64,000 bases of DNA from Owenia fusiformis. Taxonomy: Eukaryota. This document shows, piece by piece, positions 33,501 to 39,500 of this stretch (position 1 is the stretch's first letter; each line of letters begins with the position of its first letter). Location: NCBI GenBank assembly GCA_903813345.2, contig CAIIXF020000001.1:16740001-16804000 (forward strand). The letters run 5' to 3'. The position numbers were made by a program, and so were the translations under genes. The notes below the pieces were generated by a model, which worked only from the letters and a program-made list of their open reading frames with translations, ran no database searches and was not told the origin of the DNA.

Positions 33501-36500
33501 CCACAGTGTCATTAGATTATGTATTTAATAGTTGTTCAATAATCTCTCATAAAATACAAAAACTATTGAGTCCTAGGGAGTCTGTATTTCATGAGGCACG
33601 CTTTCATGCTTAATGGTATATCACTTGTTGCACTGGTATCCACCTTAATAGAATAAAATATTTGTATCATCTAAGTTAGTTTGTAAACCAAGTTGATTGC
33701 AGTATTTTCATATATCATACTGTTATTATTATACTATTACAGTACTTACAGTCTATATTATTCAATTTATTTAACAAGTAAGAAAGTCTGTTGATTATCC
33801 CACCGAACGAAGTTCGAGGGGGATATAGAAAAGCCGTCCGCCCGTTCGTGTGTCCGGGCAATAACTCAAATACCGGTTGACGGATTTCATTCAAATTTTA
33901 TAGGCTTATGCCTTATGGGTGTAGAACCTCTGCTCGAGAAGAAATTTTCAATATGGCCGCTAAATTCAAAATGGCGGCCATTTTTCGGAAAAAATATAAT
34001 CTTTAATAACTCAAATACTAGTGGATGGATTTGGTTTAAATTTTATATGCTGTTGCCTTGGTACAAAGGAGCCTTGCTCAAGAAGACATTTTCAAGATGG
34101 CCACCAAATTTCAAAATGGCGGCCATTTTTCGTAAAAAAACGTTATCTTTGATAACTCAAAGACCATTGAATGGATTTGGTTCAAATTTTAGAGGCTGAT
34201 GCCTAGGGATATAGGAGCTCTGCTCGAGAAAGGATTTTCAAGATGGCAGCTAAATTTCAAAATGGCGGCCATTTTTCGTAAAAAAACCGTTATCTTTGAT
34301 AATTCAAATACCATTGAATGGATTTGGTTTAAATTTTAGATGCTGATGCCTAGGGACATAGGAGCTCTGCTCAAGAAAGGATTTTCAAGATGGCAGCTAA
34401 ATTTCAAAATGGCGGCCATTTTTCATAATGAAACATTATCTTTGATAACTCAATTACTATTGAATGGATTTGGTTCAAATTTTACATGATGATGCCTAGG
34501 GACATATATGATAGGAGCTCTGCTCGAGAAGGGATTTTCAAGGTGGTAGCTAAATTTCAAAATAGCACATTTTTCATAAAAGAACGTAACCTTTGATAAC
34601 TCAAATACCAGTTGACGGATTTGGTTCAAATTCTATACGCTGATGCCTAGAGACAAAGAAGTTCTGCTCAAAAATAAATTTTCAAGATGGCCACTGAATT
34701 TCAAAATGGCCACCATTTTTCGTAAAAAAACGTAATTAATGATAACTCAAATACTAGTGGATGGATTTGGTTCTAATTTTATATGCTGATGTTTAGGGAA
34801 AAAGGAGATCTGCTTCAGAAGAAATAGCTGAATTTCAAAATGGCTGCCATTTTTCATTAAAAAGTAATCTTTGATAACCCAGATACCATTGGATGGACAT
34901 TCTCTGCTAAAGAAGCAATCTAAAGATGACAGCTGAATTTCAAAATGGCAACCATGTTTCATAAAGGCATAATCTTTGATAATTCAAATACCAGTGGATG
35001 AATTTGGCTCAATTTTGTTTATCAAAACATGTTTTGTTCGGTGGGATTTGCTACTCCGTGGAGTTGCTGTTTTTCTAGTTATCATAGACATTCAAAACAT
35101 CTTCACAAGATGATTCTGTAATGGCAATATGCTCTTAAGTGTCCAAAGTGATAAGATTCCTTATGATTGGCTCATAAGTCAAAAAGCCAGAGTGTTATGA
35201 TATAAATTCCTTACTTACCACATATACTGTATGTGGAGCACATACTCCTCCCATCTTTTACCAAGTAATACATATAAAGCAATAAGAATAGAGATGAGAG
35301 TACTTATCATTGAAGAAGACTTAGACATACCGATACCGACACTTTGCAAAACTAAAAAAGGATTACTGTATTTATAAAATGATTTTCATCTATTGCAAAC
35401 ATGTACACATGTGAAATCATTCTTTAGGAACATGTATACTAATATAGGCCTATATGAAATCATTCTACTGTGTATTGTTTTGTATTTCTCTTTTATGATA
35501 CACAGTTATGTATGCTTTAATGCCAGCAATTGTTTCTAACAATACATAGACAGGCATTAAGAACATTGACAGATATAATAAACATGTGACGTTACTTGTG
35601 AAACAATTCAGACTTATTAGTATAAGAAAACCATCAGATATAAAGAGAATCCAGAAGTGTGGTGGGGCGACAGGTGGAAGGACATTACCTTTAACAGCAT
35701 AGAACTACAAGGCGACACATTTGTTGGAAGTTATTTTGCTAAATGACAGCTCTCAAACCAGTAAGTATTAAGTTAAATCTATTTTGTTATATAATTTATC
35801 TCGATTCTTGGATATTTTAAAGATATATTCAGAGATAGAGATGGTGATATTTAAAATAAAAACTAAGTAACATTTTCTTTATCATTTAAAGATATGATAA
35901 TATTTTAATAAATATCCATTATCAGATTGATTTGGGATGCAGGAATACTGGAAATTCTTTAAAATAGGAAATTTGGGTAAAATATCCACATTTTAAGAAA
36001 CATATTATGTTAAACAATTCTGTAGATGTTTGAATAAGATATGAAGTTTTGGATTTTTTAGAAAATGGATTTGACAAAGAGAAGAAACAGTTTTTGAAAG
36101 TTTTTCTCCATATAAAATTCTACATTAAATTCGAACTGACTTCTTCAAGAATCCTTGATTAAATTGTAATTTATCGCCCTCCAGGGCATGCTTCCAGGAG
36201 AAAAAACAAACTTGGTGCCAACATTATTCAGTTATTTGTATCTTCAGTGGAAAATCTGTCATTCATTACATAGGCAAACATATCACTATTGTTGGTAACA
36301 CAAAATATATAATGTATAGTGAAATGAATTTATATACAGGGTGTCAAATAAGTCCCGTCCCCCCCTCTACAGCCAAAACCAAGATATTTGGTACCAAGTG
36401 TGATATATCATTGGAAAGGTCTTCCAAAGTTACGTTGATTGGCATATATCTGACATATGTCAATCAATCTCACAAATTTTTACATTGTATCAATCGAGGT

Positions 36501-39500
36501 GACCATATGCCTAGAAACATGGCAATTTGGCAGGATTTTAAGAATCGGGTATAAGAAAGGTCAAGGGACCAAAAGATGACTAAATATGTTTATGGCCATG
36601 AATTTAACCAATTTCTGGATAGGGTTAGATGTGTGGAAAATAGAGGTGCAAGGAAAGTGGTGAAAACCTTTTTGTAACAAGTGGAATGCGAAAAAGATGA
36701 ACTTTTTGACGTATTTCTGAGGTCATATCCTTGTCATTTTGACGCAAAAAAGCTACTTAAAGGAGGGCACGTTAATTGTAAAAGACATCATGAAAATATA
36801 GGTAAATTTCATCCAAAATACTTGAGAGTTGGTGAGTTAACATAACTTTGGATGATCTTTCCAATGGTATATCACACTAGGTACCGTCTGTTAAGGTTTT
36901 AGCTGTAGCAGGGGGGACGGGACTTATTTGACACCCTGTATATATATATAATTTATGAAAATTGCATGTGAAATTGATGACAATCTTAATGTGTGACTCC
37001 TTTGAATTTGAACTGAAACCATATGAGAAATTGATTTCCAGTTTTCTCCAACGCTTTTTATCAAAAGTTTCCTGACTAATATGTCCTTGGATGACATCAA
37101 AGAGTCAATAAAATATATACCGGTATATATATGCACCTGATTACCTTTGGGTATGGTGGGTAAATGAACAAGCCACCATTGCAGTAGAGTTATGAGAGGG
37201 TATCATGTTCTAAAACTGACCATATTTTGTGCCTGATCGATTGTTTCTTTTTCAGAATATGGATCTATTCACCGTGGCCTGTACAGTGACCATGTTTTTG
37301 CTGCTTATCTCAAGCAATGAGACAGCTGCTACCACCAGGAACAGAAGTAGTACAACATGTTGTGGGCGCAGGTTCTATACACGCTTGAGATCTGTTTGTC
37401 CACGACTGGTCGTTGTTGGGAAACGATCCATTTTCGAAGGTAACTTTGCAAGCATTTAGAAAACCTTTTGTACAAAAATCTAAATGAATAATAGGAGCCA
37501 TAACTATCTCATATGAGACCATTTACAAGTGTAGATGAAATGATTATGATGATATCAGTGTTATGTTTTGAAAATAATAAAGGGAATGTCTTATATGTAT
37601 TTTGAAAGAACAAAGCCAAGGTTACAAGAATTCAAACATTTCTTGTTGTCTCTAGCTCAACATATTTTGTTTGAAAGATAAATGTATACATAAGTGTTGA
37701 CAGTGTGACAAATCAAGCAGAAATAATAATTGCATGAGCTACAATGTTTGTTATAATGTTTTAAATGAGGTATTCACATAATTGTATCATGTGTGTTTTC
37801 AGATTCAGAGGTCAATCATTTAAAGATTATCAGAAAAAGGACGCTAGCCTCGCCTATGTTAGCTGAGATTTGTTGTCGGAGAGAGTGCAATCGTCAAACT
37901 CTCAAGCGTTGCTGCAGACATTTAACAGTTAAATAATTATGTGACGTGGCAGATACTTGAACAGATTCACTGCTTAGTAACTTGTTTACCAAGTGAAATA
38001 CGATTACTGACAGGAATACACTAAGTAGATATGAAGGATTACAAAGAGGGTTTTTCCCAAAGGAGTGCACCATTATTTATTTAAGCATCTAATTTATTTA
38101 TTTATAGTTTAATTATTATTTATTATTGTATTGTACTTTTTACTATTTTTGGCTCTTTTGCAATGACGAATTAGAAACGTGAAAAGGTTAACTAGATGGA
38201 GTAACAAACTTCAAAGACAGAAATGTATACTAAAAAAGAAAGTACAATGTCTTCTTATTTTACTTGAAATAATTAGCCAACAGTTCACTGCTTAGAATAG
38301 ACATGTACATATATGTTTTTAATATGCTCTATATAGATCAAATAAATAAATGACAAAAACAAAGTACTCTGTTATTTAATTCACTGATGTATGCACACTT
38401 TTATATTAAATCCAAGTCAAAAATACATGACTTTGAGCCACTTTGGACAATCATGAGTGCATTCTATAAATAAATTGTTCTGACAGTAAAAATCTTAAAG
38501 CAATGTTCTCGGAAGTTTATGTCAACTATATTTGGCAACCTTTCATTAACATGACTTGCTATGAAAAATACCAGTGGAAGTATTTTGCTAAATTAGATAT
38601 TTGTGTCATGAATTGAAGAAAACAAATCATCAGCTATATTAAAGAGTTAATACACAAGTATAGTGTCGCTAGTTTTTTATTAGTTCATATTAATATCCAT
38701 TTATTTATATGATTCAAAACAAATCAGAACATGCATCTCAAGGGATATAGCAAATCAGCACCAATGGCTAATATTAAACATGGGACAGATCAAAAGTTTG
38801 GTTTCTAAGAAATGTACATGTAAACCATTGTGATTCACCTAGTTAGCAGTTTAGAATATTTTAAGGCTATTAAGGATGATAATTACAGCTATTGTCCCTT
38901 TAAAAGATGGACCATGTGAGTTTCTTAGCTGATTTTATGGCCTTGTTTTACCAAGTTAAGATCAATTATAGTACTTTCTTCCAGAGATCTTTGAAGATGA
39001 CAGCCCATTAGAAAGTAGAATTAACTGTTTTGATTGATCAATATTTACTTGGTGGGGATAGTTAATAGTTGCATTCAATTGTTAAGATATTTTCTTTGAG
39101 TTTTATGAATGTTGCCCTTTGCAATATTTGTTTATATGTTTGAATTTTGATATAAGGTGATCAATAGATTTCGTGACTGTTTGAGGGGATATTTAGTCAT
39201 GTCATCAAACTTGGTAGAAATATAGTACATATAGGCCTGATTATACCCCTGAAAAATTTTATATCACTAAAGATGGCTTCAGTTAATAAGGTTAAGTTGA
39301 TTCAAGTCTTTGTTGTTCTAAGAATCCCACAACATAAATATGTTAATAGCTCCCACAATGGAAAATGTAAGCATAAGCTTTTGTAACCTTATTATGAAAT
39401 GCATCCTCAAAAACTATTATTACTTTTAGTCATAACCATGTGACTCTTTTAATTATTTGTTTGTTGTCCATATACTACTTTTCCATCAAGTTTACTAACT

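Follow-up and report, generated by a model that had tools for sequence, protein, structure and literature searches.

The window analysed here is a stretch of 64,000 nucleotides of the Owenia fusiformis genome (assembly GCA_903813345.2, contig CAIIXF020000001.1, positions 16,740,001 to 16,804,000 of the forward strand; the coordinates below are those of the window). It holds a gene for AMPK alpha, with exons on the + strand from about 560 to 40396, and, within one 8.6-kb intron of that gene and on the same strand, a small three-exon gene whose product probably belongs to the insulin superfamily. The original prediction, made from the letters of the DNA, had placed a spliced gene at this site that encodes a signal peptide, a B chain, a C-peptide, and an A chain, in that order; the reading frame and a public protein record agree with the exon borders that it gave, and RNA data with those at intron 2.

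The nested gene starts with an exon proposed in the original prediction (exon 1, 35583-35760, + strand), which contains the 5′ untranslated region (UTR) and an ATG at 35743 followed by five codons (MTALKP), and ends in the donor cca/gtaagt after 35760. Intron 1 (35761-37255, + strand) is deduced from the public protein and, with the ATG at 35743 as start codon, would lie in phase 0; its acceptor (ttttcag/aat) opens exon 2 at 37256. Exon 2 (37256-37439, + strand) contains a second in-frame ATG at 37259, a hydrophobic signal peptide, a B chain (C-C-G-x10-C), a KR site, and the start of the C-peptide. Intron 2 (37440-37802, + strand; 363 nt, GT..AG, donor aag/gtaac, acceptor ttttcag/a) is in phase 1 and cuts codon 68 (Asp) after its first base, within the C-peptide. 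The rest of the C-peptide lies in exon 3 (37803-38350, + strand), together with an RKR site, the A chain (CC-x3-C-x7-CC), the stop codon TAA (37934-37936), the 3′ UTR, and an AATAAA signal (38341-38346). Positions 37259-37439 yield 60 codons plus one base, with a translation starting MDLF, and 37803-37936, read in phase 1, stays open up to the TAA; joined by coordinates, the two segments form a single open frame of 104 codons with its sole stop at the end.

When the segments 35743-35760, 37256-37439, and 37803-37936 are joined, their translation is a protein of 111 amino acids (aa) that equals, letter for letter, the public record CAH1773362.1. This record, titled “unnamed protein product [Owenia fusiformis]”, was retrieved at 100% identity to the exon 3 product used as query, and corresponds to UniRef100_A0A8J1U8A2, a singleton cluster; the gene lies on a 62-Mb contig. 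The start codon of the public model is an ATG that lies seven codons upstream of that chosen in the original prediction, and the identity over 111 aa means that the junction 35760/37256 is the one used by the public gene model. The expectation that gene finders could easily miss this gene was therefore not borne out, since the exact three-exon model is already public; the insulin-like gene is annotated, though unnamed and uncharacterised, and the record carries neither a name nor a precomputed Pfam domain. Neither accession was found in the main text of papers, and we found no account in the literature of this gene or of an insulin-like gene nested in an AMPK gene; the supplementary precursor lists of PMC11863921 might include the gene.

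We mapped RNA from four runs on 35000-40500: two runs of contigs, X1 and X3 (with the label “RNA?”), and two of raw reads from stranded RNA-seq, X14 and X16. The X1 and X3 contigs are cDNA, as both hold the AMPK joint into the last exon, at a depth of about 2,000. The predicted joint 37439/37803 (GT..AG, with 363 nt skipped) was found in three of the four runs: in an X1 contig of 507 nt (depth 71), in an X3 contig of 327 nt (depth 78), and in two raw reads of X16 (X14 has none). The X16 junction reads share their mate orientation with all AMPK reads, indicating that the nested RNA comes from the + strand. X1 covers exons 2 and 3 to a depth of 71-79; intron 2 has a depth of 3, and the 1.1 kb of host intron downstream has 0-1.5. 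An X1 contig terminates at 38347, 1 nt past the AATAAA, and depth falls there from 79 to 17 and then to 0 over the next two bins, in agreement with the polyadenylation signal that had been predicted. In X3, weak coverage (12-30) persists downstream of the nested gene, which fits pre-mRNA background of the highly covered host. The exon 1 region is transcribed: it is covered by contigs in X1 and also in X3 (35450-35745), and X14 and X16 each have one + strand raw read within 35552-35735; the evidence for its splicing is the public model.

Candidate CRE (cAMP response element) and TATA elements had also been proposed. The CRE-like TGACGTTA is present at 35587-35594; taken alone it carries no weight, because it is one among 15 matches to TGACGTNA in the window. 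The RNA contigs start upstream of this CRE-like sequence, the X1 contig about 150 nt upstream of the proposed CRE/TATA elements. A TATA-like run at 37110-37136 was considered as a start site and dropped, since the X1 contig with the 37439/37803 joint already begins at 37090.

The host is confirmed as the gene of the AMPK catalytic alpha subunit. In Pfam, 12045-12191 matches the protein kinase domain (Pkinase, 1.5e-19) and 15065-15241 the autoinhibitory domain (AMPK_alpha_AID, 2.6e-19; 69 bits, with the cut-off at 27), and pieces of AdenylateSensor, the C-terminal region that binds beta and gamma, flank the host intron on both sides. Counted by eye, 14 coding exons lie upstream of this intron, the last of them at 30999-31064 (+ strand); in both X1 and X3, a loose end in the RNA before 39688 matches 31035-31064 with one synonymous mismatch. 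The host intron itself (31065-39687, + strand; 8,623 nt) contains the entire insulin-like gene, which starts 4.7 kb into it and has its AATAAA 1.3 kb before the next AMPK exon. That exon (39688-39793, + strand) matches AdenylateSensor profile positions 60-80, and RNA contigs start at 39688; its joint into the last AMPK exon is present in all four runs. The last coding exon, with the stop (40242-40396, + strand), has phmmer matches in PDB to AMPK alpha-1 and alpha-2 chains, at their C-terminal ends. At the 3′ edge of the host intron there is a 96-bp tandem duplication (39525-39716; 2.0 copies, 95% alike), which copies the acceptor and the first 29 nt of the 39688 exon and makes a decoy acceptor at 39590-39591; use of the decoy would add 96 nt running into a stop. 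The RNA contigs splice to the genuine downstream acceptor and not to this decoy.

The probable assignment of the nested gene to the insulin superfamily draws on the arrangement of cysteines and cleavage sites in its product. In the six frames of the window there is one match to CG-x10-C, the B-type motif, at 37361 on the + strand (C42-C54 of the 111-aa protein), and one match to CC-x3-C-x8-C, the A-type motif, at 37871, also on the + strand; they lie 510 nt apart, on the same strand and in B-then-A order. Among 200 random windows drawn from a first-order Markov model (Markov-1), none contained a B-type motif followed by an A-type motif on the same strand within 2 kb; the A-type motif averaged 0.09 matches per random window. 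CC-x3-C-x8-C corresponds to the PROSITE-type A-chain signature; a stricter form of the signature has one match in the window, at residues 91-105. The protein has three cysteines in the B chain (C41, C42, and C54) plus another five in the A chain (C91, C92, C96, C104, and C105), a hydrophobic Leu at the A16-equivalent position, and the dibasic sites KR62-63 and RKR78-80 on either side of a connecting peptide of 14 residues. At the N-terminus, where the signal peptide is predicted, 9-residue Kyte-Doolittle means are 1.3-2.6 in the first 13 windows of the 104-aa form and below 0 from window 17, with the maximum over residues 8-20.

The ESM Atlas gives a lead only: the named clusters closest to the A-chain exon are those of Insulin PF00049 (0.84; 196 of 256 features), and the ten best family-bearing matches all fall in one clan; the exon 2 product has generic neuropeptide-precursor neighbours only. 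A low-confidence AlphaFold2 model places helices at 44-53, 85-93, and 98-109, at places expected for the insulin fold, and another helix at residues 10-25 of the 111-aa protein; a complex prediction for the B-chain and A-chain segments scored 0.02. The presumed B chain has an N-terminal extension with two N-x-S/T sequons, NET at residues 27-29 (37316-37324) and NRS at 35-37 (37340-37348), from which the mature peptide might be N-glycosylated.

Differences between alleles are unevenly placed along the gene. Over 37090-37437 the X1 allele differs from the window by seven substitutions and two indels; all seven substitutions fall within 166 nt upstream of exon 2, whose 182 nt covered by the contig have none (hypergeometric p = 0.005). 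The X3 contig shows no differences over 37278-37437. In exon 3, the sole located coding difference is a synonymous one (37843 G>A, in a Thr codon), with up to two further differences within 37801-37967 that were not placed; the 3′ UTR contains several substitutions and indels.

Among known eight-cysteine invertebrate insulin-like peptides, mlILP of the clam Mulinia lateralis has a B chain with three cysteines and an A chain with five, and is encoded by a three-exon, two-intron gene (PMC13198591). The Owenia gene shares both the 3 + 5 cysteines and the three-exon, two-intron layout described there, but it is an annelid gene, its precursor is shorter (111 aa compared with the 161 aa of mlILP), and its protein has no detectable similarity to any protein in the searches that we ran. 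PMC11863921 describes a phase-1 intron in the C-peptide as a conserved feature of relaxin- and Dilp7-type precursor genes, two of O. fusiformis among them, and the nested gene shares it. Its other coding intron is in phase 0 after codon 6, and not in phase 2 between the signal peptide and the B chain as described for the Dilp7 type (PMC11863921); as the gene has no phase-2 intron, and its signal peptide and B chain share exon 2, the Dilp7 type was rejected. Identity with the Owenia relaxin-like peptide was likewise rejected, since the A chain of the nested gene lacks the Gly-Ile motif reported for that peptide in the same paper. For the nesting itself there is a partial parallel in Drosophila, where dilp5 lies within an intron of CG33205 (PMC2829060): both insulin-like genes are nested in an intron of another protein-coding gene, but the host of dilp5 is a gene of unknown function, whereas the Owenia host is AMPK.

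Several results weigh against reading the locus as a working insulin-family gene, and we weigh them here together with the alternatives they would favour. A non-insulin secreted cationic cysteine-rich peptide, of the antimicrobial type or a di-cysteine galaxin-like one, could have reached insulin-like spacing by convergence. The hidden Markov model of Pfam Insulin (PF00049), proposed with the original prediction as a check, did not recognise the 111-aa protein (E = 3.6; 9.1 bits, with the cut-off at 23; the sub-threshold alignment runs from residues 41-105 to profile positions 3-81 of 81), nor did Ins_beta (PF03488; E = 0.71, 10.4 bits against 21), and the two exon products searched separately against Pfam gave no Insulin match. 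The top Pfam score, above that of Insulin, was for Galaxin_repeat (PF24748; E = 0.033, 14.6 bits against 28); this match is far under its cut-off, however, and is owed to the CC pairs alone. Searches for relatives retrieved no insulin homologue: neither the two exon products nor the full protein had a phmmer match at E up to 10 among PDB sequences, the A-chain exon retrieved only its own protein from 1.84 billion representatives, and a word search with the full protein returned only itself, while one with the exon 2 product, covering proteins up to 105 aa (the public protein has 111 aa), had no match. The single-sequence AlphaFold2 model has a mean pLDDT (predicted local distance difference test) of 46, and Foldseek found no PDB match to it. 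Moreover, the presumed chains are very basic (rich in Arg and Lys), and three of the five dibasic sites fall within them (RR44-45, RR93-94, and KR102-103), so that processing may differ from the model given below. The extra cysteines directly adjoin the B7- and A20-equivalents, unlike those known from molluscan insulin-related peptides; in peptides of the mlILP type they lie near the N-termini of the chains. Against a non-insulin origin, the full insulin set occurs together in one protein (both motifs in order, the Leu at the A16-equivalent, the dibasic-flanked spacer, and the phase-1 intron), and the language-model neighbours of the A-chain exon all belong to the insulin clan; we regard convergence as unlikely. 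A different objection concerns whether the exons are a gene at all, as they could be cryptic or non-coding pieces of AMPK pre-mRNA processing, with a chance frame taken up by the annotation pipeline. In its favour, the joint 35760/37256, proposed in the original prediction and used by the public model, is not listed in any of the four RNA runs; an X1 contig is colinear over 35438-35951, passing the exon 1 donor unspliced; the X1 contig that carries the 37439/37803 joint is colinear over 37090-37437, through the exon 2 acceptor; the X3 contig spans 37256 too, from about 37173 onward; and the raw-read support amounts to a few reads. The lack of retrieved homologues would suit this explanation as well. 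The unspliced leader (37090-37258) carries six upstream ATGs, so some of the RNA may be unprocessed or untranslatable; between 35583 and 35744 the ATGs are the start codon at 35743 and one other, at 35584, and, judged by the ATG content of the two leaders, the spliced exon 1-exon 2 form is a plausible template for translation. Such cryptic processing is nonetheless very improbable, given that the motif combination occurs in 0 of 200 random windows, that the allelic differences crowded beside the coding exon spare the exon itself, and that in X1 the unit has at least 50 times the depth of the flanking intron, with its end at a poly(A) signal.

The remaining alternative accepts the hormone gene and holds that its same-strand nesting couples it to AMPK: host transcription could occlude the promoter of the hormone gene, AMPK transcripts could be cut short at its poly(A) site, or the AMPK exon ending at 31064 could be joined in frame to 37256. 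The geometry permits this, as the two genes are on the same strand, the nested AATAAA lies upstream of the next AMPK exon, and the AMPK exon ending at 31064 and the nested exon 2 are both in phase 0. The depth ratio of nested to AMPK contigs is about 0.035-0.04 in X1 and X3, and seemingly higher in X14 and X16, there from about 2-3 reads. PMC13309782 and PMC3192792 report transcriptional interference and intronic polyadenylation, the class of mechanism put forward in the original prediction, in host/nested pairs. In one such pair, H13/Mcts2, the intron of a host likewise holds a unit that has a promoter and a poly(A) site of its own (PMC13309782), but in pairs of that type interference and intronic polyadenylation were measured, whereas the Owenia pair is known from geometry. 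No chimeric joint or loose end at 37256 was seen among the rows listed, in a mapped stretch (35000-40500) that excludes the upstream AMPK exon; the AMPK exons downstream of the nested gene are at a depth of about 2,000, with no sign of a strong block; and dilp5 is another insulin-like gene that lies in the intron of an unrelated host (PMC2829060). Coupling of the two genes is unlikely a priori, and with these results we consider it quite improbable. Its most specific form would be a reciprocal wiring at one locus, in which the promoter of the nested gene is silenced by read-through from the host, or its poly(A) site, or in-frame splicing of 31064 to 37256, gives rise to AMPK alpha transcripts without the C-terminal exons that bind beta and gamma; for this the prospects are poorer again, and we think it very improbable.

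The locus is probably best explained by a divergent eight-cysteine gene of the insulin/relaxin superfamily, with three exons and its own poly(A) signal, nested on the same strand in an AMPK intron, with the nesting incidental. Under this explanation, a signal peptide of about 26 residues (with predicted cleavage after Ser26) would direct the precursor into the endoplasmic reticulum, and prohormone convertases would cut at KR62-63 and RKR78-80, freeing the 14-residue C-peptide. The B chain, of about 35 residues, and the A chain, of 31 residues, would then be joined by the three canonical insulin disulfides and one extra. The secreted two-chain peptide may act on an insulin-type receptor tyrosine kinase, or, less likely, on a relaxin-type G-protein-coupled receptor. 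A cell-type-specific promoter of its own would drive the hormone gene, and the nesting most likely came about by chance of location rather than as a regulatory device. We favour incidental nesting because nested genes are frequent, and because dilp5 already lies in the intron of an unrelated host.

The introns of the two genes also hold repeats. Intron 1 of the insulin-like gene contains an element of about 600 bp at 36336-36941 (no strand assigned), which resembles a miniature inverted-repeat transposable element, a non-coding mobile element, with inverted terminal repeats of about 30 nt; both of its ends read ...ACAGGGTGTCAAATAAGTCCCGTCCCCCC. Contig depth on it is 19,000-44,000, compared with 0-80 beside it, with loose ends at 36328-36330 and 36941; it is highly multi-copy in the genome, with RNA from both strands, and its longest frame has no Pfam match. 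Satellite-like arrays with a period of 145-146 bp lie in AMPK introns at 27731-29034 (9.1 copies) and 33861-34897 (6.6 copies). At the end of a 146-bp array, about 60 nt at 35018-35082 reach a depth of about 65,000-70,000 in the contigs and about 260-310 in the raw reads, where the first mate is mostly on the - strand. Hundreds of differing loose ends on both sides of this segment indicate a short repeat core present in many transcripts; Rfam gave no matches over the whole window, and hence none for this segment. The AMPK introns further contain two inverted pairs of near-identical long frames, at 8729-9103 (+) and 10726-11346 (-) and at 17128-17770 (+) and 24648-25248 (-), which are probably inverted copies of repeats or mobile elements. 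Downstream of AMPK, a gene with long open exons lies on the - strand at 43301-45858; one of its exons has a weak match to the sodium/bile-acid symporter family (SBF) that stays below threshold (E = 5e-4; 20 bits, with the cut-off at 24).

With its location in AMPK alpha, the insulin-like gene offers a natural setting in which to study how a host gene and a nested gene from opposed metabolic pathways interact. The nesting would matter only if the arrangement is conserved or the transcripts are interdependent, and most simply the arrangement is a coincidence of the common nested-gene kind; if the coupling were real, one locus would tie an anabolic hormone and an energy-stress kinase to each other in reciprocal fashion. 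Owenia fusiformis is an early-branching annelid used as a model species, and its uncharacterised protein CAH1773362.1 here receives a name and a function that can be tested. The gene would extend the known insulin-like peptides of spiralians by a very divergent eight-cysteine form of a kind that standard profile searches miss.

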